From Fidelibacterota bacterium (GTDB lineage Bacteria > Fidelibacterota > UBA8477 > JABMPR01), in assembly GCA_024278595.1 (NCBI GenBank), contig JAJRSW010000053.1:4488-68487 (forward strand): DNA of 64,000 nt, given 5' to 3'. Shown here in pieces: positions 1-46,945 of the stretch (its first letter is position 1; every line of letters starts with the position of its first letter). The notes under the pieces are model-generated. The model had not been told where the DNA came from. It searched no databases and was given only the letters and a program-made list of their open reading frames with translations. Both the position numbers and the translations under genes were made by a program.

Positions 1-31
1 AAAGAAGCTTCCACTACGATGGCCTTGTGAT

Positions 32-241
32 CTAATCCAGCAAGGTGTGATAAATTCTTTTTGAAGCGCTCGCGGTCATGAATCGTTGACCCAATAAAAT
101 CATCCAGACTTTTACGCTCAATCGCAACCCTGTGCTCGTACCCTTTAAGGGAGTAGTCCCCCACTTCCAGTTTAGTTCGAACTGTATTAATGTTCTTCTC
201 AAACTGGAAGGGGAGCTTCTCTCTTGTATCAATGATGACAA
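32..241 (-). CDS. hypothetical small protein (phage-like region)
   Basis: 69-aa ORF immediately downstream of the DUF669-like gene on the minus strand. No recognisable motif. Operon context only. Confidence 0.25.
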   Translation of the reverse strand: MSSLIQERSSPSSLRRTLIQFELNWKWGTTPLKGTSTGLRLSVKVWMILLGQRFMTASASKRIYHTLLD

Positions 242-246
242 TCATC

Positions 247-753
247 CTAGAACGGAAGGGGGTCTTTTTCGTCAGCTCCGGTGTCTACATCAGATAGTCT
301 ACGGTTGAAATAGATATTCTGATTCCCATCACGGGTTCGAACTGTTACTTCCAACTTAACGTCGAGTAGATATTCCAGGTTTGAGGGGAGATCACTAAGC
401 TTGTTTAGACTAACATTGCACAGCTTCAAATCTTTTTTCAACCAGCTCTGTCCTGTGGGATTATTCAGGATGTGATAATTCCAAAGCAAACGATTAATAT
501 TGCTGGGACCAACAATTTTAAGTGTCCACTTCAGCATGGGATTACCACTCGTCTTAGCTTTTGTGATTTCTGCCTTCTCGACGTTTACCTGGTATTTACC
601 ATCCGGAATCTCATCAAACTCCGGTTCATCTGCCTGGTCAAACTGATTGTCATAAGCTTCAAGGTCAATGCCTTCGTTTTCTTGCATGGTAATGGTTTTA
701 CTCTCTTTTCTTTTGGTGTGGTTGTAATAATGTTCTTCTGATAGACCGACCAA
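247..753 (-). CDS. DUF669-like phage protein (acidic N-terminus). Probable true start at internal Met near 687.
   Basis: Acidic N-terminal segment followed by GKYQVNVEKAEI...SGNPMLKWTLKI, which resembles phage DUF669 proteins that accompany Sak4-type ATPases. Its 5' end overlaps the 3' end of the upstream ATPase ORF in another frame. Confidence 0.4.
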   Translation of the reverse strand: MVGLSEEHYYNHTKRKESKTITMQENEGIDLEAYDNQFDQADEPEFDEIPDGKYQVNVEKAEITKAKTSGNPMLKWTLKIVGPSNINRLLWNYHILNNPTGQSWLKKDLKLCNVSLNKLSDLPSNLEYLLDVKLEVTVRTRDGNQNIYFNRRLSDVDTGADEKDPLPF

Positions 754-1430
754 AATGCCTTATAACTTGCATCAATGGTTTCCGGCATTTTGCCAGTACG
801 ATCACCTGCTTCATAATGTTTGGTGGGTTTTGTTCTGAGAACTCTGCGAGTGGCTGATTTACCGTCGCGATTTGAAGATTCCTCTATATCACCGTATAGT
901 ATAAAATCGCTCATCCCCAGGATAATTTTACGAGCCTTATCAGGCAGCGTTGGAATGATCTTAGTATAGTTACCGGTTCTGGTAGTAATTTCTCGTTCTA
1001 CTGCGTGGCTGATCAGAAACAGACCATAAGGCAGTAACGATAGTTTTGTCAGAACGCGCTGGAATTCACCGTTCACCAGGCTCCACCCCTTGCCATATCT
1101 CAGATCAGATTCATGCTTAATACCATGCTCTCTGCAGATATGCTCACTGCACAAACGATAGGCATTGTCCACCGTATCAATTACAACTGTTTTGAAATTG
1201 TGTTCACCAGCTCCGATTTCTTTCGATGCGTTTAACAAGTCTTCCCAATTATGAATAGGAACTTGGTACACATCAAGGTGGTTGAGTCCTGCCTCGGTTG
1301 CAAAAAAGATTGCATCTGGACTTCCCGAGGCGATTGTACTTTTCCCGAACTTGGCATGGGCATAAAGAAGTATGGTTTGCCGTTCAAGCCCGAGCACTGG
1401 AGGTGATTTTTGTTTTGGTAGTATTGTCAT
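585..1430 (-). CDS. phage AAA-family recombination ATPase (Sak4/AAA_24-like)
   Basis: Walker A-like LLYAHAKFGKST near the N-terminus and a RecA-like core (VVIDTVDNAY). Sits next to a Cas4-like nuclease as in phage single-strand annealing modules. Confidence 0.55.
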   Translation of the reverse strand: MTILPKQKSPPVLGLERQTILLYAHAKFGKSTIASGSPDAIFFATEAGLNHLDVYQVPIHNWEDLLNASKEIGAGEHNFKTVVIDTVDNAYRLCSEHICREHGIKHESDLRYGKGWSLVNGEFQRVLTKLSLLPYGLFLISHAVEREITTRTGNYTKIIPTLPDKARKIILGMSDFILYGDIEESSNRDGKSATRRVLRTKPTKHYEAGDRTGKMPETIDASYKAFWSVYQKNIITTTPKEKRVKPLPCKKTKALTLKLMTISLTRQMNRSLMRFRMVNTR

Positions 1431-1454
1431 TAACTATTCTCCTTATATGATTGA

Positions 1455-2461
1455 TTAAAAAATTCTGGATTCACTCACTGAGAGCTCACTATGAGGTGGG
1501 CGCTTGGTATAAAGGTTCTCTTTGATGTTGGGATTATCATGCGCTCTACAGAGCGGGAAATACATGCAGGGGGCATAATATCGGAAACAGCTGTCTGTAT
1601 TCTGACTCCAGTGTTTCCGTCGCCTGGAACTCAGGATTTCCTGGGTGATTTCCCAGAGTTCCTGTTCAGTTCGATCCATATCTGCCTTGGACAAATACAA
1701 TGTCTCACGAGCATACATACCTGGAGCTTCATAAACCGATTCCAATCGTTTCTGAAAGGTCTCATCTGATTCCGGTATTTGACGTTTTGCTGAAGTTTTT
1801 CCGGTTTTGCTCTTGCGAATTAAGTCCTGTCGACGAAGTTCAAACTGATCTTCTGTTTCTCCTTGTCGTTGCCTAATTTTGCTCTTCTGGATCACATTGT
1901 AAATCACACCTGCTATGGGGATCTGACGCTCTCTACCCAGCGCTATGGCGTACAGATTGACCTGAAAATCCATGGGTAGTTTTTCGATGTAGTCGCCTGT
2001 AATGAGAGCAGCTGTCTTATGCTCCAAAATGAAATACTCACCACCCAGACGGACTAGGCCATCCACTTTCCCCATTAGTTCAAATGATTGGCTGGGTCTT
2101 CCTGTCCTTGGATTGATAATTGGGACACGAAAGTCCAATTCTGTTTCAATTACTTCGAATTGTTCTTGGTCATAATGCGAGCAATAACCTTTCATCATGG
2201 CTCTGGCTAGATGCCAATCTCTTTTTTGGCGTTCGGCCGAATCTCTTAATGAGTAAGCTTCATCGATGAGACGATTAATTTCAGCACCAGTTGCTTTCTT
2301 CTTATACCACACTTCCAGGCATTCATGAATGATTGACCCCAGAAAGAGTGCATCATCTTGTTCCAGGGGAACCAGGTTTTCTAGATAGCGATTGTGATAT
2401 GCTTTGTGGCAAACTTGAAATTTTCTTGCTGCTGAATAGGTGAGAATTTGTTTATTCATGA
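1455..2461 (-). CDS. PD-(D/E)XK nuclease, Cas4/RecB-like phage exonuclease (start at Met MNKQILTY overlapping the spoVG stop)
   Basis: Motif DGLVRL..YFILEHKT (D...E.K) plus a C-terminal Cys cluster CFRYYAPCMYFPLC typical of Cas4-like Fe-S nucleases. ATGAATAA overlap with the upstream gene stop. Confidence 0.6.
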
Positions 2462-2721
2462 TCTTTCTCCATGCGAAGTGCTTGTATGAGTGCATCCTTG
2501 ATTTCATTATGAAATTCTTTTGAGATCGGCTTGAAATAGGGATACTCATTACCCCCGCCAGTTCGATATCGTGGAAAACTCAAGTAAATTGTTCCATCTG
2601 GTTTACGCCTGATAGCGATGTTGTTTAAATAGAGGTTGTTATCCACGACCAGGGATGCAAAACCAATCAATTGTGGTTCTTCTTTCCCTGCTATACGGAT
2701 ATTGATTTCAGTAATATTCAT
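2452..2721 (-). CDS. spoVG: SpoVG-family nucleic-acid-binding protein
   Basis: 89 aa with IRIAGKEEPQLIGFASLVVDNNLYLNNIAIRRKPDGTIYLSFP...NEYPYFKPISKEFHNEIKDALIQAL, which matches the conserved SpoVG fold signature. ATGA coupling to the upstream ORF. Confidence 0.55.
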   Translation of the reverse strand: MNITEINIRIAGKEEPQLIGFASLVVDNNLYLNNIAIRRKPDGTIYLSFPRYRTGGGNEYPYFKPISKEFHNEIKDALIQALRMEKDHE

Positions 2722-3014
2722 GATTGATTCTCCCGGATTAAGCGGTCCATAATGAACTGAGCTGCTGGATGGTAATTATGACCTGCCTCTTGCAAGTTTT
2801 CTGAACTGGCTTCCTCAATGAGTTCTCGCATATGGTGGAGGAATACTGAATCAATTTCCTTCAGGAGCTTCCACATGCGTCCCTCCTCAAAGTCTTGGGG
2901 GTATTTCCCAGCATAGCTGCCAAGCGCTTGCACAATTTCATAGTACATCTGAGTCATGGGATCCCCCAGTTGTGGAGGACTCGGCTTTTGTGATATTTGT
3001 TTGGTGTCTTTCAT
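2718..3014 (-). CDS. hypothetical protein
   Basis: 98-aa ORF translationally coupled (4-nt overlap) to spoVG. No motif recognised. Confidence 0.4.
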   Translation of the reverse strand: MKDTKQISQKPSPPQLGDPMTQMYYEIVQALGSYAGKYPQDFEEGRMWKLLKEIDSVFLHHMRELIEEASSENLQEAGHNYHPAAQFIMDRLIRENQS

Positions 3015-3044
3015 TCTGTCTCTTAAGGGCAGACAAAACGGACA

Positions 3045-3725
3045 TTAAATTTTATGGTCTTCAATTTTTCTGGTGATGCGCCTCAGCCTTTTTTGGAAAG
3101 CGTCGTAATTCACCCCTCGCTCACGGGCAATTTCTTTTAACGATCTCCCGTCGCGGGCAACGTCCAGCCACAATTCCATTTCCTTGCTCTTCAATACTTT
3201 GGATGCCAGAATCTGTTTAATGATTTTGTCTGTATCTGTGCTCTGAGGGGTTTGGGGAGTATGATGATCCTCGATTTCAACATAATCATGGTCATTTGCC
3301 GTCACCCAGATGTAGAAATCCCTGCGCAGGGATCTGGTAAGGTTGGCATATATTTTTATCGAAGGAGGTTTGGCTGCAGCTTTCACGCATAGTTCAAGAA
3401 GAATCAGATTGCCTTGTGAGAGGAGATCCTCTGGAGCAAGGTTTCTACCCTGACAGGAACTTGCCAGATAGGTTAGGTTTCGCCAGAACATGGCCGTCAA
3501 TACCAAATAGCAGAATTGCTGAAAATCAGGTGTTTTCGATGCTTTTAGTAATTCCGTTATAATTGAGCTTTGGAAGCTTGGTTCTTTTGATTTAGTGAAT
3601 GCCTGTATCAAGGATTCGGGTGATTCAAACGGGTATTGATTGAAGTGATTGTTGGTTATTTTTTCAAATACTTGTGTCCTGCGACAGATCTCTTTGGACA
3701 AAGACCGGTACTGAGCATCAAACAT
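3045..3725 (-). CDS. sigma-70 family (ECF-like) sigma factor / HTH DNA-binding protein
   Basis: C-terminal region-4-like HTH (MELWLDVARDGRSLKEIARERGVNYDAFQKRLRRITRKI) and a region-2-like segment. Phage early/middle gene context. Confidence 0.5.
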   Translation of the reverse strand: MFDAQYRSLSKEICRRTQVFEKITNNHFNQYPFESPESLIQAFTKSKEPSFQSSIITELLKASKTPDFQQFCYLVLTAMFWRNLTYLASSCQGRNLAPEDLLSQGNLILLELCVKAAAKPPSIKIYANLTRSLRRDFYIWVTANDHDYVEIEDHHTPQTPQSTDTDKIIKQILASKVLKSKEMELWLDVARDGRSLKEIARERGVNYDAFQKRLRRITRKIEDHKI

Positions 3726-3829
3726 AGACGCACTCCTTGGGGCTGATCAGAGCCTTTGGGGAGTGCGCCTTTTAGATCACATCATCCGGGACCACATGGT
3801 GGGTCACTGCATGGCTTAGGGTTCTTTTT

Positions 3830-4033
3830 TTATTTTATATCGATCCATATTTTGGATACCTTATTGTATTTGCAGGGGAACGCAACCGCTTTACTTGGTC
3901 CATCCCGCTCCTTCTCCTTTACCCAGCCTAATAATTTGCCTAGTTTACCCCTTGTACATTTGCAGGCCTGTATCGGACAACGCACCGGAATGAAATTTTT
4001 ATGGTCGCTAACTATTGATTTATTCTTATTCAT
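3830..4033 (-). CDS. small Cys-containing hypothetical protein
   Basis: 67-aa ORF with four Cys. Sits directly downstream of a strong minus-strand terminator, so expression is uncertain. Confidence 0.2.
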   Translation of the reverse strand: MNKNKSIVSDHKNFIPVRCPIQACKCTRGKLGKLLGWVKEKERDGPSKAVAFPCKYNKVSKIWIDIK

Positions 4034-4043
4034 CTATCACTCC

Positions 4044-4097
4044 TAAAAACAAAAAGAGGTTGTGATCTGCCAATTATCTTCGGCAAATCACAACCTC
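4044..4097 (-). terminator. rho-independent terminator after the XRE-ImmA transcript
   Basis: 16-bp stem gaggttgtgatctgcc / ggcaaatcacaacctc (one mismatch, 10-nt loop) followed on the minus strand by TTTTTGTTTTT. Confidence 0.6.
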
Positions 4098-4365
4098 CGT
4101 AAAATCTGGGTTCAACCCAGGTGGCCAGTTGTGTTACTGTTTTGCGGGATTAACCCGCAGTGCGAACCTCTACCCTACCAGTCAATAGAGCAGCCAGTTC
4201 TAATATGTATAAATCATTCCTTCTTTGGTTTTCTAAAATCCTTCATCTTTCTGGCATTCACTGGCACTCCATTTTGAACCTTTACTTTGTATTCTGCAAA
4301 CGGATTTTTTTCAAATTCAAAGCCCAGCTCAAGGAGCTTCGTGTTCACAGTTGTCTTGATTGTTT

Positions 4366-5148
4366 TCAAACGTGAGCTACTCCCTTCTGGGCAAATGTAA
4401 GAACAGAATTGTTTTTTTGGTATTCAATCCCGCTGATCAGCTTAAGATTAAGCAAACGGTTGACCATGGCTGCTTTTGATACATTATTAAAATTTCCGGC
4501 ATTGATGATTTCTTCAGCGATGGTATTAGCACGCATGTAAGGGTTATCCCAAAAAGGAGAACTATCGGCTATAGTGCTTACATTAATTCTATTTTCATAC
4601 ACCTGTTTGAAGCTGGCGGTAACCAGCCCTTCAGGCATTAATAGTGCTGCTGCGTATTTATCAGCTTGAAACTCTCCTCGTGGCTTTTTTCCCACATCTC
4701 TGCAAAGTATCCCCGGTATATCATCACTACTAAAAAGGGTCTGTTGGTTTTTTATTGAATTAAGCCAATTCTTGTGTAAGGCATGGTGTCCTATTTCATG
4801 AGCGACAGTGAAATTGTAACGCCCCTCTTGGTTCTCGAGGGCGCCATTAATCTGGATTGTATCCTCCTCGAAAATGATCCCGCCTAGAACTTCAGGCTCT
4901 TTGAATAAGCCATCAGTGGTAATTTCAATTTGATATTTAAGATAATTTTCAGCAATAGTTTCGACTGGGATAGGTGCTGAGATCTCCCAAGATTCGCTGT
5001 GTGCATATTCCCAGATGAGATTCCAGGATTGTTGTTCTATTGCATTGTCGGTTAAAAACGGTACGCTGTTCAAACTTACTGTCACTAATGGTTCTCCTAT
5101 TTGTTTTCGTCTAACATTTTCTGAGCTTCTTTCTTCAGCTCTTCCCAC
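4366..5148 (-). CDS. ImmA/IrrE family zinc metallopeptidase (anti-repressor protease)
   Basis: HEXXH motif in TVAHEIGHHALH. Lies directly downstream of, and overlapping, an XRE HTH gene, the classic ImmR/ImmA arrangement. The annotated start overlaps the XRE 3' end by about 50 nt, so the true start may be a non-ATG codon. Confidence 0.7.
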   Translation of the reverse strand: MGRAEERSSENVRRKQIGEPLVTVSLNSVPFLTDNAIEQQSWNLIWEYAHSESWEISAPIPVETIAENYLKYQIEITTDGLFKEPEVLGGIIFEEDTIQINGALENQEGRYNFTVAHEIGHHALHKNWLNSIKNQQTLFSSDDIPGILCRDVGKKPRGEFQADKYAAALLMPEGLVTASFKQVYENRINVSTIADSSPFWDNPYMRANTIAEEIINAGNFNNVSKAAMVNRLLNLKLISGIEYQKNNSVLTFAQKGVAHV

Positions 5149-5447
5149 TGCTCTTTTTTCAATCCCTTCGCTGTTCGCAAGAAATCATGTACAGCGTATG
5201 AATTCCCTTTAATTACCTTCAGAACTTCAGGATCAACCTGGTCAGCTCGAACCATGAGCCGATCCACATCAATTTCAAGTGCCCTAGCTATTTTGCTGAG
5301 TAATTCAGGTGATGGTGTGGCCTTGTTCTTTTCAATTGATGAAATGTGCACACCCGACACCTCTACTCTGCGCCCTAGCTCTCTCACTCCGATCTTTTTT
5401 TCGGTGCGGAGCCTGAAGATCATCTGGCCGAGGGTTTCTTTTGTCAT
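5097..5447 (-). CDS. XRE-family helix-turn-helix transcriptional repressor
   Basis: HTH_3-like segment IGVRELGRRVEVSGVHISSIEKNKATPSPELLSKIARALEIDVDRL. First gene of the minus-strand regulatory pair, divergent from the integrase operon. Confidence 0.75.
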   Translation of the reverse strand: MTKETLGQMIFRLRTEKKIGVRELGRRVEVSGVHISSIEKNKATPSPELLSKIARALEIDVDRLMVRADQVDPEVLKVIKGNSYAVHDFLRTAKGLKKEQWEELKKEAQKMLDENK

Positions 5448-5618
5448 ATTTTTTTCTTCTTTCGTTTCATTTATCTATCAACTGTAAGCTTACATCTTAC
5501 ATGCTCCAAACTTACTGTAAGATAGTTGTTTACACAAGGGAAAAATAGAAAGTTTTCTTTTTTGTCCGTTCTCCTTGCCCTTACCAGGTATGGAACGCAA
5601 GTTCAGAAAGGAGATAAG

Positions 5619-5804
5619 ATGAATAATATAATACGTTTATTAGCTAATGGAATGCTGCGAAAAATAGAGGATGACCACAAAGCTTCAATTATGCCTACAA
5701 GAGAAGAAACAGAGAATAATCAGTGGATTGCAGGGAAAGAGTCATGCCACATTGGGCAGGAGAAATTCATAAAAAAACAAACCCATAGGAGCATGAAACT
5801 ATGA
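5619..5804 (+). CDS. small hypothetical protein (possible excision/regulatory factor)
   Basis: AGGAGA ribosome-binding site 6 nt upstream of the ATG at 5619. ATGA stop-start coupling to the DUF2924 gene. The upstream in-frame extension to 5526 lacks an RBS. Confidence 0.35.
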   Translation: MNNIIRLLANGMLRKIEDDHKASIMPTREETENNQWIAGKESCHIGQEKFIKKQTHRSMKL

Positions 5805-6253
5805 AAATAGCAACTGCAAAACGCATCGAGAGGCTCTACCAGCTAACACCGGGTGAGCTCATGAAGGAATATGCACGCCTCACCGGTGAAAGCTACTACA
5901 CTCACAATCGCAAAAGCCTGATTCGCAAAATCGCCTGGCTCTATCAGTCAGAAGATAGCAAGCCGCTTTCGCAAATGGCTTTGGATCGGATCGAGGAATT
6001 GAAAAACACCAAAGCCCGGATTTACCCTCATCCAGATTTCCAGATTGATATCCCTGATAAGATAATGCCCAAAAAAGTAGAATTGGCCACCGGTACCATC
6101 CTGAGAAAATCATACAAAGGTAAAAAATACGAGGTCACCGTATTGGATCGAGGATTTCTGTGGAAGAATAATATTTACAAATCCATCTCTGCTGTGGCCA
6201 AGGCAATCACTGGCACCCACTGGAATGGCAAGCTTTTCTTCGGGTTAAAATGA
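5801..6253 (+). CDS. DUF2924 family protein (serine-recombinase-associated)
   Basis: LMKEYARLTGESYYTHNRKSLIRKIAWLYQ..LSQMALDRIEEL resembles DUF2924 proteins, which are characteristically encoded immediately upstream of large serine recombinases. ATGA coupling on both sides. Confidence 0.5.
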   Translation: MKIATAKRIERLYQLTPGELMKEYARLTGESYYTHNRKSLIRKIAWLYQSEDSKPLSQMALDRIEELKNTKARIYPHPDFQIDIPDKIMPKKVELATGTILRKSYKGKKYEVTVLDRGFLWKNNIYKSISAVAKAITGTHWNGKLFFGLK

Positions 6254-7815
6254 TGATGGATATTTCACATGTTGCCGGGATCAAACAAATTAGATGCGCT
6301 ATCTATACTAGGAAATCCACAGAAGAGGGTCTTGAACAAGAATACAATACTTTAGACGCCCAGTGGGATGCGTGTGAGAGTTACATCCAAAGCCAGAAGT
6401 CACGTGGTTGGATAACTCTACCTGTCCATTATGATGACGGTGGCTTTACCGGGGCTAATACTGAGCGCCCAGCTTTCAACCGATTACTCGAGGATATTAA
6501 AGCCGGAAAAATTGATACTATTGTGGTCTATAAAGTAGATCGGTTGAGTCGATCTCTGGCTGACTTTGCCAATGTCATGGATTTATTCGATAGGCATAAT
6601 GTCGCATTTGTGAGCGTCACTCAATATTTTGATACATCTTCTTCCCTTGGTCGAATGACACTCAATATCCTCATCACCTTCGCCCAGTTCGAGAGAGAAA
6701 TGATCTCTGAGCGCATTCGGGATAAGATAGATCGCAGCCGAAAAAAGGGTAAGTACATGGGTGGCCAGCCCGTGTTAGGATATGACGTTATCGAGAAAAA
6801 ATTAATCCCCAATGATCACGAAAGGTTTCAGATCAAGAAAATCTATGATCTATATCTGAACAACCGCTCAATCCGTGAAATAGCAGAGATGGTGCAAGAA
6901 TGGGGGTGGACCACGAAACGCTGGCAAACCAAACGAGGACATATGACGGGCGGCAAACCTCTATCCCCACAGGTACTCTACACCATTCTAAAAAATCCAA
7001 CATATGCTGGTAAAGTACGACACAACAAAAACATCTACGACGGTGAACATGAAGCCATCATCAAGCAACAAGTATTTGATGATGTACAAGCTCTATTGAA
7101 AAAGAATCGGAATAACTTGACCAATACAAGCAGGAAGAAATTTGACTCTATCCTGAATGGGATCCTGGTCTGTTCTCACTGTGGCTCTCGCATGATCAAA
7201 ACATATACATCCAAGCCCAACAAAAGATACAGCTACTATGTATGCCTTAAGGTCTCAAAATTTGGACGTAAACACTGCAGCAACCCGTCCGTGCCCGCGA
7301 ATAAACTGGATGAATTTGTAATAAAGCATATCCAGAAAATCACAAAGGACCCAACACTGCTCTCAGCTTTTCTGGATGAATTTCAGAACCAGAAAGAGAA
7401 TAGACTGAATGAAATTACGCATGAGATAAAAGCACTCACTGTCAAGCTTGCCAGTCATCGCTTGGAACGAGATCGTATCGGCCTTGATCCAAGTCTAGGT
7501 AGATATGATTCTATTGAAAATATCGAGAGTAATATCTCTCGAGCCAGTCTAAGAATTGAGCAACTCGGGTCCCAGAAGACAGCAATCGAGTCCACCGTTA
7601 TGAATGCCGGTGAAATCACCCAGATTCTCAGTCAATTTTATGGAGTATGGGATAAGTTATCTGTAAAAGAACAACACGAGATCATGGACCATGTTTTCGA
7701 ACAAATCTTTTGGGATGGAAAAAAGAAATCCATGGATTTCGAATACAGTCCACTGGGCTTGAGACTCCTATATGATAGAAAGGTCATTCAGAATGAGAAT
7801 CTCGACAAAAATTGA
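6250..7815 (+). CDS. large serine recombinase (phage/element integrase)
   Basis: Resolvase N-terminal catalytic domain (IYTRKSTEE...VYKVDRLSRS), a recombinase domain, a zinc-ribbon (CSHCGS...YYVC...C) and a C-terminal coiled coil. 521 aa. Confidence 0.85.
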   Translation: MMMDISHVAGIKQIRCAIYTRKSTEEGLEQEYNTLDAQWDACESYIQSQKSRGWITLPVHYDDGGFTGANTERPAFNRLLEDIKAGKIDTIVVYKVDRLSRSLADFANVMDLFDRHNVAFVSVTQYFDTSSSLGRMTLNILITFAQFEREMISERIRDKIDRSRKKGKYMGGQPVLGYDVIEKKLIPNDHERFQIKKIYDLYLNNRSIREIAEMVQEWGWTTKRWQTKRGHMTGGKPLSPQVLYTILKNPTYAGKVRHNKNIYDGEHEAIIKQQVFDDVQALLKKNRNNLTNTSRKKFDSILNGILVCSHCGSRMIKTYTSKPNKRYSYYVCLKVSKFGRKHCSNPSVPANKLDEFVIKHIQKITKDPTLLSAFLDEFQNQKENRLNEITHEIKALTVKLASHRLERDRIGLDPSLGRYDSIENIESNISRASLRIEQLGSQKTAIESTVMNAGEITQILSQFYGVWDKLSVKEQHEIMDHVFEQIFWDGKKKSMDFEYSPLGLRLLYDRKVIQNENLDKN

Positions 7816-8164
7816 TTTTGAATTTAGTACCCAAAAAAAACAAAAATTACCCGGTAGGGTTCCTGTAATCTCACGAATGATGGCTTTGGCTCATTTCTAT
7901 GATCACTTACTTCGAAGCGGAACCGTCGATTCAGTATCAGCCATTGGTCGTCTTGAAGGCGTTACTCAACAACGCATAAGCCAGATCATGAGCCTGCTAT
8001 TATTAGCGCCAAAGATTCAGGAGGCTCTCCTGATATTGCCACTTCAACAACGCGGTAACAAGAGTTTGCCGACGGAGAGAATGATTCAAATTGCGAAAGA
8101 AATGGATTTTGATGTACAATTAAATTTATATAACGGGGGCTTCTCCTCTAGTACAAAGATCTGA
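7772..8164 (+). CDS. ParB/KorB-like HTH domain protein (short)
   Basis: GVTQQRISQIMSLLLLAPKIQEALL resembles the ParB/Spo0J HTH recognition helix region. Start uncertain, since the ORF overlaps the recombinase 3' end. Confidence 0.3.
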   Translation: MIERSFRMRISTKIDFEFSTQKKQKLPGRVPVISRMMALAHFYDHLLRSGTVDSVSAIGRLEGVTQQRISQIMSLLLLAPKIQEALLILPLQQRGNKSLPTERMIQIAKEMDFDVQLNLYNGGFSSSTKI

Positions 8165-8166
8165 AT

Positions 8167-8418
8167 TCAGTCTGGATCAATGCTTTTAGAGCGGTATATT
8201 TTTTTCGATCTACGTGGACTGGGTTCAAACTGCCCGCCCTTGGGTTCAATAGTCCTGATTATAGTTTGATGGATAGCCTTACGAAAGGGCAACCAATATT
8301 CATGAACCATACGTACGACCTGATGGATCAATTCATCCCACTCCCCATGGGGAACACTGGATGCCTGGTCCTTTCTCCAGCAACCTTCTTTTGTACCAAA
8401 CAATATTATAGGTTCCAA
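8167..8418 (-). CDS. hypothetical protein
   Basis: 83-aa ORF convergent with the recombinase operon. No motif recognised. Confidence 0.25.
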   Translation of the reverse strand: MEPIILFGTKEGCWRKDQASSVPHGEWDELIHQVVRMVHEYWLPFRKAIHQTIIRTIEPKGGQFEPSPRRSKKIYRSKSIDPD

Positions 8419-8684
8419 AGGATCCGGGTTAATATCTGCCTCTTTTAATGGTTGCCACTCTTTTTTAACACTTGGATGCGAATTCCAATCTAATAATTAC
8501 ATCTGCCCTTTTCATTTCATACTTGAGTTCAGAATATTAAAAAACATAATAGGGTCAATGATTCCAAAAGTTTCGGAAAAGTGAAGCAGCCAGCATCATA
8601 TATATATTTCCGCTTTTCGATCGTCTCGAAAGACTACTGGACAGCTAAAGGAAGGTTGCATAAGTAATGAGAAGTAGAGACAAA

Positions 8685-9050
8685 TTACCGTTCCTCATAA
8701 ACCCAACGTTCAAGCCTGATTTCTTCTGCTCGGATTGTTTCTGGATGATCTGGAGCTGAGTAATCTAAAACAGCCCATGCAACCCCATCATTATACTGGA
8801 TTGAGTGTATTCTTAATAAACCACACTCAGTTCCCGTATCTGGATCGCAGAAAGGGTACTGACCAGTAATATATCGAAAGGTCGAACCATTAGCTTGTAA
8901 GCACCCCTCGGAAGTCCATTCAGAATCATATGCTGCAATCCAATTGAGATTGATGTACTCTATTTTATTTATCACGACCTCCATCGGCTCCACTGGAATT
9001 TCACAAGACCAAATTACGACAACGGCTAACAATACAATATTTTTCTTCAA
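8685..9050 (-). CDS. small secreted lipoprotein
   Basis: N-terminal signal peptide with lipobox (LLAVVVIWSC). Several Cys in the mature part. Confidence 0.5.
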   Translation of the reverse strand: MKKNIVLLAVVVIWSCEIPVEPMEVVINKIEYINLNWIAAYDSEWTSEGCLQANGSTFRYITGQYPFCDPDTGTECGLLRIHSIQYNDGVAWAVLDYSAPDHPETIRAEEIRLERWVYEER

Positions 9051-9149
9051 TGTGTATCTCCCTTCTTTTTATAGATGTGTTGAGTTGGAATATAGACCCG
9101 TTTTGCAAAGCATTCGATAGACGATACTACCCAATATGATTGATACAAC

Positions 9150-10565
9150 TTAGTCTTTTACACAACGTACAGAGTGGCCACTTTTCTTGAAAGCGAACCC
9201 GCGAGAAATACGTGACTCACTATAAATCAGTGTATGATTCCAACCATAGCCACTACTGCTCTCAGTCGCTGTCCAAAAGTACCCACTGATTGTAATGTTA
9301 CCGTAATCACCAGTAGTACCATCATAGCGATAACCTCCAGGTAACGCAGTAAAGCCACTACTATTATTTCCATTACCTCCATTATACCACCCACTGGTTG
9401 ATTTTAATTTATCACCTTCATCTGTACCGCGCCAACTGCTACCCTGATCTGCCTGCTCTTGGCTCATCCCCAGAGCCATCTCAAGCTCTTTCCACTCGTC
9501 ATCTGTGGGTACATGCCAACCTTCTGGGGCAATATTCCGACTGTCATTTAATGCATACCAGTTATACAAAGCACCATAGGTGTCTACCTCATTTTCTGCA
9601 TTATTACTATAAATACAGTAGGCTTCGGTTGTCAGGTTAGCCCAAGCAGCATTATCCGTTACATGTGTGACTTCAGTACCATCTCGATAACGGGTTACTT
9701 TTAGGTTCTCTGCCATCCATGTTTGAGTTCCTATAATAACAGTGCTGTAAACATTACCATCAATATCTGTTACTATTACTGGTGATTGAAAATCGCCAGT
9801 AACAGTTTGTGTGCCTGTCGGTCCGATCGTGATTTCAACTGCTGCTGTACCTAGTGGAACTTCATTTGGTCCAACCCATACCAAGTTAATAGTATAGTTA
9901 TTATCGGCTCCAGCTATGACGGTAACTGTTGTGTCTCCAGTATATAGCAAGTATTCCGCTCCCCACATATCTCCATAGGCATCTAACTTAATATTATGCT
10001 CTACGCCCGTACTCAGATAGTCATAGCTCAGACTTAACGTGGAACCTACTCCACTCTGTGCTTCGAAAGAAGAGTCAGCTACCAGGGCCGCATCCACCAA
10101 TAATTCACAGCGACTCACTGAATCAGCTATCCCAACAAAATTTGCCACCAACATAGAATACTTCGATGTTAATGAAAGGCTTACATCCACAGTGTTTGTT
10201 GGTACAACTGTGAAGGTGGTGGAGTCTGAATGAATGACAATATCATTTACATCCCGAGATTCTGCTTTTACGCTCCAGGAGCCTTCTACTAAGTCTGTAT
10301 AGCTGTTACTTACAATAGTCTGAGAATTGCCACTAACGGCTACTGTATCCCTGACGGTGGCTACACCATTGTTTAGTTCAATGTAGAGGTTCTCCAGGTC
10401 AATAGTGGCGGCCTTACTCAAACTACCAACATTGCTTAAATGGATAGATAGATTTACTTCACCTAAAGTCGTTATGGCTAGCGGTTCAGTAGAGTTATTA
10501 CAGCCTTGAACCAGCATTAAAATGGCACCCATAGCAAGTATTGAAGCTCTTGTGTTTTGCATCAC
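9150..10565 (-). CDS. surface lipoprotein with C-terminal Fibrobacter succinogenes major paralogous domain (Fib_succ_major)
   Basis: Lipoprotein signal (AILMLVQGCNN). The C-terminal ~190 aa carry the hallmark motifs of the domain: TQTWMAENLKV, ALYNWYA, EGWHVPTDDEW, GFTALPGG, FWTATE, and the terminal SGHSVRCVKD. Confidence 0.65.
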   Translation of the reverse strand: MMQNTRASILAMGAILMLVQGCNNSTEPLAITTLGEVNLSIHLSNVGSLSKAATIDLENLYIELNNGVATVRDTVAVSGNSQTIVSNSYTDLVEGSWSVKAESRDVNDIVIHSDSTTFTVVPTNTVDVSLSLTSKYSMLVANFVGIADSVSRCELLVDAALVADSSFEAQSGVGSTLSLSYDYLSTGVEHNIKLDAYGDMWGAEYLLYTGDTTVTVIAGADNNYTINLVWVGPNEVPLGTAAVEITIGPTGTQTVTGDFQSPVIVTDIDGNVYSTVIIGTQTWMAENLKVTRYRDGTEVTHVTDNAAWANLTTEAYCIYSNNAENEVDTYGALYNWYALNDSRNIAPEGWHVPTDDEWKELEMALGMSQEQADQGSSWRGTDEGDKLKSTSGWYNGGNGNNSSGFTALPGGYRYDGTTGDYGNITISGYFWTATESSSGYGWNHTLIYSESRISRGFAFKKSGHSVRCVKD

Positions 10566-11254
10566 TTCCCCTTTAGGATAAAATATTGATTAAGCAGCTC
10601 TGAGAATCAGTGGGAATAGATACTATTTGAAGTTCTGTAAAGAAGTGCGGCTAAGATAATGCAATGACTGTCTACTGGCAAGCATTTCTACCATTCACAT
10701 TGAGAACAAGGATTTATTAGGGACTTGATAAACCCGCTCCAAGTGGTATCACATTGGAGTGCGGGGGCATTAAACGCAGTACCCTGTAAGTCGTCAAAGT
10801 AATTCGCACAAGTTCGCTTAAAAAATAAGAGACACTTTCCGGGCATCCAACATATTAAGCAAACATCTCTTGGCTTTTGCTTAGCAATGACCTGGTTATA
10901 TTTGCTATATACCGTCACTTCTAACCAGCCCTTACTTATTATTTATATGCGACTTATACTCATAGGCTTCGACTCTCCGAGATAGACTCAAACCGTTCTA
11001 TTTCCAAAAATAGAAAAACCTTCTATCTTTTACAATGATTCTTGTAAAACTCTAGCGGACAGAGACTTCCAGTTACAAGCAGAAATATTCTCAGAACCAG
11101 AGAAAAAGAGAAAATTGGGCTATTTATTGGGATAAACGGGAATAATGTATGCGGTGTTTACGGCGTTTCAAACTGTTGGTGCACCAGGATATCTTTAAAA
11201 TGTACGGCTGCATCATTTTGTTATTACGATAGTTACAGGCCTGCTCCTATAAAT

Positions 11255-11297
11255 AGAATAGCCCCCAGGAACCGAAGTTCCCAAGGGCTTGGGGGGG
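11255..11297 (-). terminator. terminator hairpin downstream of tRNA-Val
   Basis: Minus-strand GGAAC-UUCG-GUUCC hairpin (UUCG tetraloop, extended by flanking G/C pairs) followed by a U-rich tract. Confidence 0.4.
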
Positions 11298-11372
11298 TGG
11301 GCGCTGAGGGAGTCGAACCCCCGACCCCCTGCTTGTAAGGCAGGTGTTCTAAACCAACTGAACTAAGCGCCC
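11298..11372 (-). tRNA. tRNA-Val (anticodon TAC)
   Basis: Manual cloverleaf on the minus strand: acceptor GGGCGCT/AGCGCCC, D-arm GTTC..GAAC, anticodon stem CCTGC/GCAGG with loop CTTACAA (anticodon TAC), T-arm GGGGG-TTCGACT-CCCTC, discriminator A. CCA is not encoded. Confidence 0.85.
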
Positions 11373-11965
11373 CGCTTTTCAAGAGCCTATCCAATCGAAT
11401 AGACGGAGCGAATATACATGGTCCAATAGGCCTTGCAAATTATTTCTTGAGCTGTTTTTACTCTCGATTTTCTTCCCATTTAACTCCTGACTCCCTGACC
11501 CCCTTGAACTGGGTCTGACAGTACCTTTTCAGGGAAATAAATCTTTCATGAAAGTCTAAATCCAGGGTTGCAGATGAAAAATAATGCCGGAAATCAAGTC
11601 TCTCAGATCACTCTAAGATTTCCAGTCACTATTCCAAATCGATGTACACTTGCCTCTAAATCATGATCCCCGAGCGGGAGCCTGATTGTCTGCCTGTTGA
11701 TCACGTATTTGGTCAAGCTGATCTTCGAGAAAATTCAATGGTACAGTGCTTTTGGTACTATCGAGTATTGTTAATTCCCTGGATTCCTCCATCCTTTTAC
11801 CTGTGCCATCCGACTGCCACGGCATAGCTGGAAAGGATGCGAAGTGGTTAAAAAAATTAATTCTGGCCAGATGTGAATCTCAACTACTTGGATTCACCCC
11901 AAACGCATCATTTTATTATTGCTATCTGATCCAAGTGACAGGTTATTTTGCTGGGAATGAATCGA

Positions 11966-13156
11966 TTAATCAACAGCGTCCTGCTTTAGAATTGATGCGG
12001 TTAAAGGTCGGTAGTATTGCCAAAAGAATGATCTGGTATCCAAAACATTCCTGCTATTATACAAAAAAGATTGGAACCAGTGGATCCACTTGAAATAAGC
12101 ACTGACTGGTGTTATCTCATTCCGGGAAAAATCTCCTGCAAAATAGTAAAAGCGATAGTCCGGACCCTCATGAGCCAAAACAGCCGGAAAAACAGGTGAA
12201 AGATCCTGAGCCGCCAGTACGGAATCACCGGCTTCGGTGACCGGCAAATGGAAAGTTGAAACCACAGTATTCTCACGAGTAGGTGAAAAAACCATATCAA
12301 ACCAGGATATATAATTGACTTCAGCAGGAACATGAAACTTTTCCTGGTAAAAAGGACGAGTCTGAATGACCGGAACCTTGCGTTCTAACAAAGATCCACT
12401 CTCCAAAATGATGATATCATCATTAGAACTCACCAACACCAGCCCTGATTGGATATAGGGCCAGGATTTTCCGGTCTGCTTCCGATGAAGATCAAATATC
12501 CAAGCTGGTACTCCGGCTCCCTTGGTGGAATCCAACGAATCAAAATAACGACCGCTCCATCCTGTCCATAGCAGACCGAATTCCTTCAGGAAACGCCTGC
12601 GAGCATTTGGAGGGGTTGATTCACCTAAAATATTAAATTCCGCAATAATCAGTTTTTCTCTGACTTTCATAGCTTCAAGCAAATCCAGATCCCGTTCATA
12701 AAGCCCACCATATAATAAGCGATTGGGCGTCTGCGGTTGAGCAAAGAAATCGTTGTAATAAACACCGTACGTATCAGCAAAATAAACAGCATCTATAGTT
12801 TCAGCTAAACTGTCCACAGCACTTTTTGAATAATTACTGATATCTTTTATTAAATAATTATCAGCCGCCAGGGGATAAAAACCGTAGTAATCACAGCCCC
12901 TGGAATATTTATTCCCATCTGATTTGGTGATCTTTTCATTGTTCAAGACCCAGAATAAGGATAGTTGGTTTTGTGAATCACTATCAGGCACTGACTTATT
13001 CAGCACAAAGATATCCATTGGGAAATCCGGTGTCGCAAACCAACTCAGCACCATTATTACTGGCGTCACTATTAAGCTAAAGACCAGGTAACGAAGCAGT
13101 CTTACCTCAAACGGCTGTTTGATATATTTAATGAGTTTTCTGGTTTTCACCCGCAT
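11966..13156 (-). CDS. membrane-anchored periplasmic protein of unknown function (last gene of the EPS operon)
   Basis: Single N-terminal TM/signal anchor (LVFSLIVTPVIMVLSWF) and a large Trp/Tyr-rich soluble domain with no motif I recognise. It follows the TPR-porin gene after a 9-bp gap. Confidence 0.55.
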   Translation of the reverse strand: MRVKTRKLIKYIKQPFEVRLLRYLVFSLIVTPVIMVLSWFATPDFPMDIFVLNKSVPDSDSQNQLSLFWVLNNEKITKSDGNKYSRGCDYYGFYPLAADNYLIKDISNYSKSAVDSLAETIDAVYFADTYGVYYNDFFAQPQTPNRLLYGGLYERDLDLLEAMKVREKLIIAEFNILGESTPPNARRRFLKEFGLLWTGWSGRYFDSLDSTKGAGVPAWIFDLHRKQTGKSWPYIQSGLVLVSSNDDIIILESGSLLERKVPVIQTRPFYQEKFHVPAEVNYISWFDMVFSPTRENTVVSTFHLPVTEAGDSVLAAQDLSPVFPAVLAHEGPDYRFYYFAGDFSRNEITPVSAYFKWIHWFQSFLYNSRNVLDTRSFFWQYYRPLTASILKQDAVD

Positions 13157-13165
13157 ATTCGATCC

Positions 13166-14683
13166 TTAGAATCGGCGGGAATAGGAAATGTAGAACCCCG
13201 TATCACCTCGGTATGCCGCTTTACGCACTTCCACATTGGCAAAGCTGAGAACACTTTTGATCAGGTTCAAGTCATCCAGTTTCCACTGATAGGTCATGTT
13301 CAAATGGCGAGAGCTAAGATAACTGACTTCCACGGCTCCCAGACTAATATCAGGCGACTCTCCCTGCCCGAAACTAAGCTCCAGGTATGTCTCTGCATCC
13401 CTGATATATCGTCGGCACTGGAAATTCCAGGCTCTGGAAAATGATACCTCCTGGGGTGTCAGGAAGCTACGGATGCTAAACCAGTAGCTCCGCCAATACT
13501 TACTTGCGGATCCAGTAAAAATATTCAGGTCAAGAGCCTCTAAATGCACAGACCGATAACCTGCAGATACTTCAAATGCCTGGGGCAGAACTTGAAACAC
13601 CTCGGCTCCAGTTCTGTAGCTTGGGAAAAGTTGGGTCCCGGAATAGCCCAAAGCAAGATAGGCATAGGTACCTTTTCTGATTGTCGGGTATGATTCCAAC
13701 TCAAACTGCATCCCTGACTGCCCGAAACGGCGGGCAAAATTGAACCGGGCAATGACAGGTCCAAAGCTCAATCTTTGTTCAAGCTCGATTCTTAATTGAT
13801 GCCAGGGCTCAAGCGTGGTCCGGCCCACCAACACCTGCCATGGTGTCCTGGTACCAGCCAACCTGTTATAGCTGTATCCTATGCTTACCTTTCTAGCACG
13901 CCCCTGTCGAGATAGGTCGGCCAGTATTGCAGTCGCTTTAGCATGACCAGGATCCTGCTTTAGCACTTGTTGAAACGCTAATTGAGACGCTTTAAACTGC
14001 TCCAGCTTAAGTAAACATACTCCTCGTTTATAAATAAATTCCGTATTTAGCGGATTTAGTTGAAGACCTTGTTCCAGTAGCTCAAGCGCTGCTACATAGT
14101 TTCCACTCCAGATATAGACATCAGCCAATGCGCTGCGGGCATCTTCGAAATAGATCTGTTCATCCAATACGCGATGGAGTTGCACAGCAGCACTATCATA
14201 TTGCCCTTCCCAGGCATATAAACGACCCAGGAAGATACGGGTTTCATAATGATCAGTTGTCAGGTCAAGACCCCGCTGGCAAATGCGGATGGCCAGTTGA
14301 TTATTCTTTTCAACAAAGGCCACTTCTCGAGCATATTGGTAAAGAGAATCTGAATTGTTATTCAGTCGATAATCTCTAAAAATACTACTCTCAGCCAAGC
14401 TAACCTTCTGGGCCGTACTGTCCCCTTCGCCCATTTCTGCAAAACAGGGTATTACAATAAATATGACAGCTAATAACCGAATGAATTTTATAGTGCCGTG
14501 CTTCGAGAACACTTCAACGAGCCCAGTGTGGCACCTCAGCCCGTGGAACATCCCGCCACCGATGGGGACCTGCTTGAGGATGGCCGCCCTGCGGTAGTCA
14601 CTGAGCACGGCTGAAGTGCTCTTGAAGGGTTTGAAAGCAAAATTATACACCAATGACCTCATATCAATCATCAACTTCCTCAT
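13166..14683 (-). CDS. TPR-repeat plus C-terminal beta-barrel outer-membrane protein (PgaA/BcsC/PelB-like exopolysaccharide export porin). True start probably an internal Met near 14554.
   Basis: Internal signal peptide (KFIRLLAVIFIVIPCFA), multiple TPR-like repeats (YYQYAREVAF.., LYAWEGQYDSA.., AKATAILADL..), then an amphipathic beta-strand-rich C-terminal half ending in an aromatic residue. ATGA overlap with the GT2 stop. Confidence 0.55.
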   Translation of the reverse strand: MRKLMIDMRSLVYNFAFKPFKSTSAVLSDYRRAAILKQVPIGGGMFHGLRCHTGLVEVFSKHGTIKFIRLLAVIFIVIPCFAEMGEGDSTAQKVSLAESSIFRDYRLNNNSDSLYQYAREVAFVEKNNQLAIRICQRGLDLTTDHYETRIFLGRLYAWEGQYDSAAVQLHRVLDEQIYFEDARSALADVYIWSGNYVAALELLEQGLQLNPLNTEFIYKRGVCLLKLEQFKASQLAFQQVLKQDPGHAKATAILADLSRQGRARKVSIGYSYNRLAGTRTPWQVLVGRTTLEPWHQLRIELEQRLSFGPVIARFNFARRFGQSGMQFELESYPTIRKGTYAYLALGYSGTQLFPSYRTGAEVFQVLPQAFEVSAGYRSVHLEALDLNIFTGSASKYWRSYWFSIRSFLTPQEVSFSRAWNFQCRRYIRDAETYLELSFGQGESPDISLGAVEVSYLSSRHLNMTYQWKLDDLNLIKSVLSFANVEVRKAAYRGDTGFYISYSRRF

Positions 14684-19133: not shown

Positions 19134-19139
19134 TGAACA

Positions 19140-46007: not shown

Positions 46008-46549
46008 AATTAATCAGTCCATAGTATAAACTTCTTCTCGGTTTTATTCACAGGAAAAACAAATTCATTTTTCTTTTTACAACAAAACATTACCGTTATT
46101 TGCGAAACAGGCCTGATATCAGAGCTAACCCGCTTATTTCATGAGGGTGAGCAAAAGCAAACATAAGATGTCATTTACAGTATAATGCAAAGTTTTTCTT
46201 AAAATACACTTTGTACACAGGTGTTTCTTACTGAGGAGTTTTGAATTTTACCAAGGCGGAAAGATGAACCTCCCTTCGACAGGCTCTGGGACCACCCGCA
46301 GACGGCCCCGTAGGACCGTTGAGGACAGATTTAGCTTTCCGACGCAGGTAGAATTTAAAAAAACCAGTAAGATTGCATTCCTTCATGAAATATGCGGGCC
46401 AAGCCCCTGCTGGTCAGAATCTCTAGAGTGCACCACTCACTGAAAATTCTGGTTGGTAAGTTGGTTTCTGTAAGCTTCCGGGGAAGATTATTGATCGGGT
46501 GCTTTTTTCACCAGTTCCCTTGTAAAAAAAACACGTCTGATTCGTAATA

Positions 46550-46945
46550 AATAGGTGGATCTGTAAGCCGGATTCTGTCTTATCCTCTATGAGCATGAGG
46601 CAGCCATTGATCTGGATCCCGGTTTGCACCGTGATACAAGCTTCCCACCCGAAGAGTATCATCCAGGATGATCTGGCGGACCACCAATCTCTTCTGCTTG
46701 GAATTGCTCCGGTTGGGGTTTTCCCACATGGTCAATTACTTGACCACGGCGTGAGCTCTTACCTCACGATTTCACCCTTACTCATCAACGTCCAGTTGTA
46801 TTAGGCGTAGATGAGCGGTATCTTTTCTGTGGCACTTTCCATCCCCACCAGTTGGTGGGGTCCCATGCTGCGAACATGGGCAACCCGTCCTGCGGAGTCC
46901 GGACTTTCCTCCCGGCAAAAGCCAGGCGACTGCCCGATCCACCCA
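46550..46945 (-). ncRNA. rnpB: RNase P RNA, bacterial type A
   Basis: Minus-strand transcript with a P1 stem GGUGGAUC/GAUCCACC and P4 strands GGGAGGAAAGUCCGGACUCC and ACAGAAUCCGGCUUACAG. A short P3 hairpin CCUGGCUUUUGCCGGG. The P10-P12 region GGGUGAAAUCGUGAGGUAAGAGCUCACG and the P15-like AAACCCCAACCGGAGCAA match the E. coli M1 RNA consensus. Confidence 0.88.

Follow-up and report, generated by a model that had tools for sequence, protein, structure and literature searches.

A Serine-Recombinase Cassette at the Probable Integrase-Proximal End of a Temperate Phage-Like Element Beside tRNA-Val in a Candidatus Marinimicrobia Chromosome

Introduction

The first part of a 64,000-nt stretch of the Fidelibacterota contig JAJRSW010000053.1 (assembly GCA_024278595.1, positions 4,488–68,487; the whole stretch is referred to here as the window) raises the question of where an integrated phage-like element ends, and which enzyme placed it there. 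The original prediction had read positions 1–8450 as the right end of such an element, in which a minus-strand early/recombination module faces a plus-strand serine-recombinase operon, and it left the right boundary open between an AT-rich spacer (8420–8684; 36% GC, compared with 42% for the element) and the region up to a tRNA-Val gene. Window positions 1 to ~11296 are probably the integrase-proximal end of a temperate tailed-phage-like element resident at the tRNA-Val(TAC) 3′ end in a Candidatus Marinimicrobia chromosome. The right end is put at the tRNA gene because of the layout shared with two related elements (L003 and L176), the composition of the intervening DNA, and an association with tRNA genes across the family of recombinase cassettes.

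The gene list is based on an open reading frame (ORF) listing combined with Pfam, PHROGs, and NCBIfam scans of the window proteins. For comparison, 162 loci were examined, two of them fetched via the Sak4-like protein of the element and 160 via its large serine recombinase (LSR). ARAGORN was run on all loci, and tRNA counts were taken over 50 non-redundant loci with both flanks available.

Results and Discussion

The Recombinase Cassette and Its Syntenic Relatives

The operon that carries the integrase consists of four plus-strand genes:

5526..5804 (+), small ORF, first gene of the recombinase operon; matched in close relatives only (L003, 58%; L176, 35% over 46 aa)
5801..6253 (+), DUF2924 protein (PF11149, E 2.3e-33)
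6250..7815 (+), LSR (integrase), 521 aa (PF00239, 2.6e-38; PF07508, 4e-13; PF13408, 3e-15; phrog_95, E 3e-123)
7772..8164 (+), putative ParB-type helix-turn-helix (HTH) protein, 130 aa, 'small subunit' of the cassette (phrog_14161, E 5e-13)

The LSR has the make-up of a phage-type enzyme, with a resolvase-type catalytic domain that includes the nucleophilic serine, followed by a Recombinase domain and then a zinc ribbon. It aligns with the catalytic domain of the TP901-1 integrase (3bvp; E 3e-25), with AIYTRKS against AIYTRVS, and residues 175–364 match the recombinase/zinc-ribbon region of the A118 enzyme (4kis; E 3e-11). ATGA overlaps join the small ORF to DUF2924 (5801–5804) and DUF2924 to the LSR (6250–6253), and the LSR and HTH genes overlap by 44 nt; these start/stop overlaps fit the translational coupling that had been proposed for the operon. 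The small ORF probably starts at 5619, which would give a product of 61 aa, and the C-terminal part of the DUF2924 protein has a weak, below-cutoff RAMA-like match (E 7.6e-4). A family profile of the HTH protein, built from a 56-sequence alignment, matches the HTH region of Helicobacter pylori ParB (4umk; E 6e-4), and it is from this profile that the earlier 'ParB-like' label draws its support. Single-sequence searches retrieve no sequence relatives of solved structure for either the DUF2924 or the HTH protein, and a single-sequence AlphaFold model of the HTH protein (predicted local distance difference test score 38) was unusable.

Syntenic relatives of the element occur on other contigs: L002 (a 266-kb contig of a metagenome-assembled genome, or MAG; LSR 64% identical to that of the window), L003 (a 155-kb contig of GCA_900089805.1; 78%), L176/L177 (Marinimicrobia MAG GCA_016784325.1; 64%), L182 (63%), and the fragments L001 and L004–L006. 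Nucleotide homology to these relatives spans window positions 4 to ~8113, and the relatives carry ERCC4, RecD-like helicase, and primase-like genes in the region left of the window edge. L002, which has the RecD-like helicase and the primase, also encodes a Terminase_6N large subunit from 19759 onward (35 bits vs. a cutoff of 22), 8.6 kb beyond its DUF669 gene; structural genes would likewise be expected in the unseen part of the window copy. The cassette itself is carried by ~80 IMG/VR viral contigs and by two deposited phages discussed below. These relatives, together with the continuity of the element with chromosomal DNA, bear out its description as an integrated phage-like element; that the window begins inside it is evident from homology down to base 4 and from the ERCC4 gene that crosses the left edge. 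A lysogeny switch and an integrase stand at one end of the inserted segment, the GC content of which is 42.4%, vs. 46.3% for the host. All 14 element ORFs that are whole in the window are intact, and they are conserved across five lineages at 35–91% protein identity.

In L003 the RecD-like helicase (396–3596, −) comprises 1066 aa, vs. 722 aa in L002, L176, and L182, and its extra segment has a LAGLIDADG_3 match, which suggests an intein or homing-endonuclease insertion.

The Right End at tRNA-Val

The presumed right end is made up of the following features:

10973..11125 (no strand), conserved non-coding block, presumed element end, core at 11073–11120; 75% to L003 18778–18924, 87% to L176 16179–16231
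11296..11372 (−), tRNA-Val(TAC), presumed integration target, found by ARAGORN and Rfam; 3′ end faces the element
tRNA-Val 3′ end sequence, around ...CTTGG/TGGGCG, i.e., ...CGCCCACC...

The tRNA-Val gene is thus where it had been predicted, and a hairpin at 11260–11289 follows its 3′ end. In the window, L003, and L176 the order is the same: cassette, variable cargo, conserved block, and tRNA-Val(TAC) on the minus strand, with 166–171 nt separating the conserved block from the tRNA 3′ end in each. The DNA between cassette and tRNA measures 3.1 kb in the window, 7.2 kb in L003, and 4.5 kb in L176, and these segments are mutually unrelated; past the tRNA, the window has a 396-aa gene vs. Lon in L003 and L176. 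The intervening segment of the window (8165–11295) has a GC content of 41.2%, and its tetranucleotide distance to the host is 0.0244, vs. 0.0141 ± 0.0019 for equally sized host chunks (~5 standard deviations). If the element ends at tRNA-Val, this segment is cargo.

Across the cassette family, a tRNA gene with its 3′ end facing the cassette is found within 0.9 kb in 8 of the 50 loci, and within 8 kb in 19; by a rough estimate from typical tRNA gene density, well under one locus would be expected by chance at the shorter distance. Two arrangements recur, and in both the tRNA 3′ end always points toward the cassette: minus-strand tRNA-Arg or tRNA-Asn 233–301 nt after the HTH stop codon, and plus-strand tRNA-Asn, -Gln, or -Glu 540–700 nt before DUF2924. 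In the tRNA-Arg group, a conserved spacer of ~270 nt links the HTH stop codon to four different tRNA-Arg isoacceptor genes, past which the outer flanks are unrelated; element DNA therefore extends to the tRNA.

The ~270-nt spacer (L018 3744–4043, L020 8660–8926, and also in L022, L032, L059, L087, L082, and L046) contains repeated GAGAGC-containing motifs, and could represent an arm-like set of binding sites for accessory proteins. It was rejected as a structured RNA: RNAalifold gave a weak energy, with no net covariation on either strand, and there was no Rfam match. The minus strand of the L003 terminal block (~18780–18810) reads like a tRNA T-arm, GGTTCGAATCCG, which has a degenerate counterpart in the window (10975–11000); an older tRNA-derived attachment (att) site might have left it behind.

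The Cargo Segment

Between the cassette and the conserved block, the window holds:

8167..8457 (−), UPF0149/SEC-C (YecA-like) remnant, C-terminal half; 31–32% identity to residues 130–226 of the intact UPF0149+SEC-C gene of L003
8685..9050 (−), 121-aa protein without family match
9150..10565 (−), FISUMP-domain (Fib_succ_major) surface protein (PF09603, E 1.7e-50)
10784..10873 (no strand), 90-nt repeat; 95.6% identity to L173 13100–13189, 85.5% to L169 80–160

The UPF0149 remnant has lost the N-terminal 129 aa, and Ser, Arg, and Lys stand in place of its SEC-C cysteines, so that it is a probable cargo pseudogene; in L003 the intact gene follows the HTH gene in the same position and the opposite orientation. 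The stop codons of the HTH gene and the remnant lie 2 nt apart, inside the palindrome CTGAATTCAG. For the 121-aa protein, a hydrophobic N-terminus (judged by eye) suggests a secreted protein or lipoprotein. The 90-nt repeat is probably an insertion-sequence (IS) end remnant, either a solo IS end or a miniature inverted-repeat transposable element, judging from its similarity to L173 (GCA_900089805.1, the same assembly as L003), where the matching sequence adjoins the end of an rve transposase gene.

The C-terminal 200 aa of the FISUMP protein show 44% identity to the variable-region domain of the target protein of a diversity-generating retroelement (DGR) in L176. Neither a reverse transcriptase nor an Avd homologue is encoded in the 64-kb window, which also lacks a template repeat and any further copy of the FISUMP 3′ end; the gene was accordingly rejected as part of a local DGR. 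It may once have been a DGR target that has since been orphaned, or a DGR located elsewhere may act on it. In L176 (12020–15951; also L177 and L178), a complete DGR lies between the recombinase cassette and tRNA-Val, consisting of a 586-aa Big_7/BACON/FISUMP target, bAvd, a template repeat (14468–14671), and an RVT_1 reverse transcriptase; 22 of the 24 changes from the template repeat to the variable repeat (13580–13782) are at adenines.

At the 3′ end of the HTH gene, a stretch of 29–30 nt (8084–8113) is 97% identical in L002 and L176, whereas the surrounding gene is ~65% identical. It overlaps a promoter-like match (8091–8120; TTGCGA, 18-nt spacer, TACAAT) that points into the cargo. As a conserved DNA site the stretch is unsupported, since synonymous sites are not conserved in L003 or L004.

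Does the Element Reach the tRNA?

The element could instead stop just after the HTH gene (~8165–8700), in which case 8165–11295 would be host DNA, or older unrelated debris beside tRNA-Val. Nucleotide and protein homology to L002, L003, and L176 does end at the HTH stop codon, and in the Acidithiobacillus phage AcaML1 and the tRNA-Arg/Asn relatives the att end lies within ~230–310 nt of the last cassette gene. The pseudogene and the IS-end remnant are also in keeping with debris, and FISUMP paralogues occur in plain chromosomal contexts too. Such an early end nevertheless leaves unexplained why tRNA-Val, always oriented alike, follows each of three related elements, with a block at a fixed 166–171 nt, when the intervening DNA is unrelated and the far flank of the window differs from that of L003/L176. 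The composition of the segment, ~5 standard deviations off the host, and the DGR in the equivalent position of L176 likewise argue against it, and with the HTH and UPF0149 stop codons 2 nt apart there is no room for an att site outside coding sequence. On balance, an end just after the HTH gene seems unlikely. Of the two boundaries that the original prediction had left open, the tRNA-Val option is thus favored, and the end at 8450 gives way to one that is probably at ~11296.

Several observations weigh against an element that is a phage and extends to tRNA-Val. The window, which starts inside the element, shows no terminase, portal, capsid, or tail gene, and no left end. The tRNA-Val gene is 3.1 kb from the cassette, vs. 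~250 nt for the tRNA in the clearest relatives, and 31 of the 50 family loci have no tRNA in the available flanks. The composition of the cargo is no closer to the element (distance 0.0233) than to the host (0.0244), and, given the pseudogene and the IS remnant in it, the segment could be the debris of other elements. A copy of the tRNA-Val 3′ end beside the HTH gene, as expected for a tandem insertion, was not found; this fits a cargo segment and proves nothing. No empty site was found via the host flank genes among L163–L166, so that the related genome lacking the insertion that had been called for was not obtained among the flank-gene relatives. Because L002 has a tyrosine recombinase, a second integrase is possible in the unseen part of the element. 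The Lon flank is common to L003 and L176 at ~71% identity, much like their elements, so that vertical inheritance is possible for these two.

Searches for the attachment sites themselves gave little. Direct repeats, which had been suggested as a mark of the element ends, and inverted repeats were sought in window positions 1–13000, where only chance-level repeats were found apart from a terminator hairpin. A relaxed ARAGORN search for tRNA fragments returned only noise, and the contexts of FISUMP orthologues were uninformative on the empty site. The stretch at 8221–8249 was considered as an att arm, as it resembles L002 3250–3222 (GGGTT..CCCGCC); 17 of 29 positions match and the motif is absent from L003, and the idea was dropped because the stretch is authentic 3′ coding region of the decayed UPF0149 gene.

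On the other side of tRNA-Val, the element is contiguous with 52 kb of DNA in the window that is regarded as chromosomal, because it includes the RNase P RNA (bacterial class A; 46548–46945, −; 245 bits) and a block syntenic with Marinimicrobia contigs. This host block encodes a PAS histidine kinase, response regulators, a glycosyltransferase, a TPR/YaiO protein, and the 396-aa protein; it is syntenic with Marinimicrobia contigs L164–L166, and 99.8% identical to L163, a contig of Candidatus Marinimicrobia MAG GCA_021648165.1. Synteny with L165 and L166, the hosts of which have ~57% protein identity to the window host, ends at the 396-aa gene (window 11966); in these two contigs dNK, TetR, and ABC-transporter genes follow, with MacB among the neighbors, and dNK rather than the element comes after the 396-aa gene. 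L163 ends at window position 11635 and L164 at ~11940, right after its 394-aa gene, both ≤330 nt from the end of the 396-aa gene. Two independent contig breaks just short of tRNA-Val suggest that the locus is strain-variable or hard to assemble.

These flanks also bear on whether the segment is an old, vertically inherited prophage remnant (grounded or domesticated) or a non-phage integrative island, fixed in a Marinimicrobia clade and not currently a mobile phage. Consistent with this would be the element and Lon flank that L003 and L176 have in common at similar divergence, the minor decay of the window copy (a lost Sak4-like stop codon, plus remnants of UPF0149 and of an IS), and the lack of visible structural genes in the window. 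The host flank of the window is unlike that of L003/L176, and distant relatives of its host have dNK after the 396-aa gene, which speaks against a fixed locus; the 14 intact, conserved ORFs, the terminase gene of L002, and one LSR sequence (P0244) that is unchanged on 17 contigs speak against a defunct element. We therefore give a grounded remnant little credence, and retain the temperate phage-like element that probably reaches ~11296.

A Conserved Multi-Gene Integrase

Among the 162 loci, the LSR is present in 148, DUF2924 in 145, and the HTH gene in 118. Wherever all three occur they are in the order DUF2924, LSR, HTH on a single strand, and 145 of the 162 have DUF2924 ahead of the LSR. In L154–L157, and in gp31 of the Wolbachia phage WO, the HTH domain is fused to the LSR; such fusions argue for a physical partnership of the HTH protein with the recombinase.

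The nearest deposited phages with the cassette are AcaML1, which is inducible (JX507079), and WO. AcaML1 has the same order of small ORF, DUF2924 (Gp4, 31% identical to the window protein), LSR (Gp3, 'site specific recombinase large subunit'; 42% identity over 369 aa), and HTH proteins (Gp2, 'site specific recombinase small subunit', and Gp1; 35–43% over the HTH region), and the module stands at the very end of the prophage, reading outward, as it probably does here. The position of the small ORF is kept in AcaML1 (Gp5) and in the relatives with an upstream tRNA, but no significant sequence similarity was detected between the window ORF and Gp5. The AcaML1 attB is reported to be ssrA, with 10-bp direct repeats (PMC3826726); as proposed for the window, a small stable RNA gene is targeted at its 3′ end. 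The complement of CCACCA forms the start of the AcaML1 record, as seen at the end of L167, which is the reverse complement of that record. AcaML1 differs in having two HTH paralogues and ~310 nt from the last gene to the end, vs. one HTH gene and ~3.1 kb of cargo in the window, as well as a tmRNA rather than a tRNA-Val target, and its host phylum and the remainder of its genome are unrelated. In WO, DUF2924 (gp30, 28%) is directly upstream of the LSR (gp31, 41%) at the prophage end. Residues 435–482 of gp31, at the LSR C-terminus, are homologous to the HTH protein of the window, so that what is fused to the recombinase in WO is a separate gene here. The att sites of WO have been reported from protein-coding or intergenic DNA rather than from tRNA genes.

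With the LSRs of TP901-1, A118, Bxb1, phiC31, and SPbeta (SprA), the window enzyme shares the three-domain architecture and catalytic-serine motif. Canonical phage LSRs are not known to rely on co-operonic DNA-binding partners for integration, which is mostly into protein-coding genes, and their directionality factors are separate, separately regulated genes. The window LSR, in contrast, is translationally coupled to two conserved proteins that are presumed to bind DNA, and the family often abuts tRNA genes.

Could a different enzyme have chosen the tRNA? In L002, the interval from the primase region to the terminase holds a tyrosine recombinase (18367–19609, −; PF00589, E 6e-38) and, as a separate piece, an N-terminal SAM-like fragment, and tRNA genes are classic tyrosine-integrase targets. 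A tyrosine integrase elsewhere in the element might thus act at tRNA-Val, and the LSR cassette might serve inversion, resolution, or excision control. Such a division of labor is hard to reconcile with the short, constant spacing between LSR cassette and tRNA 3′ end in many independent lineages, which leaves no room for another gene, or with AcaML1, which integrates in ssrA and has no annotated tyrosine integrase; in addition, PHROGs groups the LSR protein with integrases. We regard a tyrosine integrase as a very improbable agent of this insertion.

For the LSR cassette, the mechanism would be as follows. The serine recombinase would carry out attP × attB exchange at or near the 3′-terminal nucleotides of the tRNA gene, with the DUF2924 and HTH proteins acting as its DNA-binding partners; these two and the small ORF could be subunits, directionality factors, or regulators. 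The literature searched contains no functional study of the DUF2924 or ParB-type HTH partners. As a tentative extension, the cassette is possibly a multi-subunit serine integrase, the partners of which bind the arm-like terminal block and direct integration into tRNA/tmRNA 3′ ends, and Marinimicrobia phages may have a swappable cargo bay before the att site that can hold a FISUMP-aimed DGR. Targets at tRNA/tmRNA 3′ ends and an arm-like architecture have so far been regarded as a hallmark of tyrosine integrases.

Early Module and Lysogeny Switch

The minus-strand genes on the left side of the window comprise an early recombination/replication module:

1..245 (−), ERCC4-type nuclease, N-terminal part; aligns with ERCC4 proteins at L003 3589–4035 and L002 11185–11607, both PF02732
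247..753 (−), DUF669 protein, like single-strand DNA-binding (SSB) proteins in PHROGs (PF05037, E 3e-15; phrog_7778/378 'single strand DNA binding protein')
585..1430 (−), Sak4-like AAA_24 ATPase (PF13479, E 1.7e-46; phrog_124, E 6.5e-50)
1455..2549 (−), PD-(D/E)XK Cas4-like exonuclease (PF12705, E 1.5e-17; phrog_1218 exonuclease, E 3e-48)
2452..2721 (−), SpoVG-family protein (PF04026, E 1.1e-10; 41.9 bits vs. a cutoff of 29.6)
2718..3014 (−), 98-aa conserved protein without family match; kept in L002, L003, L176, and L182
3045..3725 (−), 226-aa protein with sigma-70 region-4-like C-terminal HTH; sub-threshold matches only
3830..4033 (−), 67-aa conserved ORF that opens the early (lytic-direction) transcription unit; 66% identity to L003, 41% to L002

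All of the genes named in the original prediction are present in the window where it had placed them. Its list for this module and the adjoining switch (DUF669, Sak4-like, Cas4-like, SpoVG, XRE, and ImmA) is upheld by the profile scans, apart from the weak sigma label, and it had missed the ERCC4 gene, which is incomplete here. The 226-aa protein is an unproven candidate sigma factor on the strength of its profile matches: it scores 22.6 bits against TIGR02937, under the cutoff of 42.9, and E 6e-4 to 6e-3 against PHROG sigma families, over residues 82–223 at most and mainly at the region-4-like end. It has no Pfam match to Sigma70_r2 or Sigma70_r4, and a five-sequence profile of its family matched nothing in the PDB.

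Probable starts are an ATG at 687 for the DUF669 gene and 2459 for the Cas4-like exonuclease; the two proteins are 86 and 74% identical, respectively, to their L003 counterparts. The Sak4-like ATPase has 281 aa in the window vs. 246 aa in L002, L003, and L176, with the 35-codon extension overlapping the DUF669 gene in another frame. Here the stop codon has been lost (585–690), with AAACCATTACCATG in the window vs. AAACCATGA in the three relatives. Temperate phages have Sak4/SSB-like/Cas4-like modules that likewise bring together an AAA_24 Sak4-like ATPase, a DUF669 SSB-like protein, and a PD-(D/E)XK exonuclease; the window module differs in that it also embeds SpoVG and an ERCC4 nuclease, and in the lost Sak4 stop codon.

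The switch genes lie between this module and the recombinase operon:

4055..4098 (−), hairpin resembling an intrinsic terminator (19-bp stem, then a T-run) that closes the XRE–ImmA–p51 operon
4214..4369 (−), 51-aa conserved ORF (p51) downstream of ImmA; 75% identity to L003, 55% to L002
4366..5148 (−), ImmA/IrrE-type M78 metalloprotease (PF06114, E 6e-6, above the Pfam cutoff; phrog_87 metallo-protease)
5097..5447 (−), XRE-family (cI/ImmR-like) repressor (HTH_3, E 2.3e-9; PHROG repressor families; 91% identity to L003)

The terminator closes the XRE–ImmA–p51 operon, and the early genes therefore constitute a separate transcription unit. The true start of the protease is probably near 5064 (its relatives have 232–240 aa). 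An XRE HTH repressor thus adjoins a co-directional M78/IrrE-type protease with an HExxH motif (HEIGH), as in the ImmR/ImmA pairs of ICEBs1 and Bacillus phages, and as in those switches the pair is divergent from a recombination operon. In ICEBs1, the integrase is co-transcribed with immR-immA, whereas the integrase cassette of the window is on the divergent strand from the XRE/ImmA pair. By analogy, in the lysogen XRE would repress both the early promoters and that of the divergent recombinase operon, and ImmA would relieve this repression on induction.

Implications

The element is of an ordinary kind; what is to be carried forward is its extent to ~11296, the conserved multi-gene cassette, and the unexpected association with tRNA 3′ ends. 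For genome annotation, the corrected extent is most likely to ~11296, and includes cargo with a FISUMP surface protein that the host could display as a lysogenic-conversion trait. Because Marinimicrobia (SAR406) are uncultured, an integrated temperate-phage-like element offers a way to approach their viruses. Hundreds of environmental elements share the recombinase cassette, as do AcaML1 and WO. If its partner proteins are indeed required subunits that steer an LSR to tRNA genes, the targeting repertoire of serine integrases would be wider, and the multi-subunit reading would, if true, be of interest to integrase engineers.

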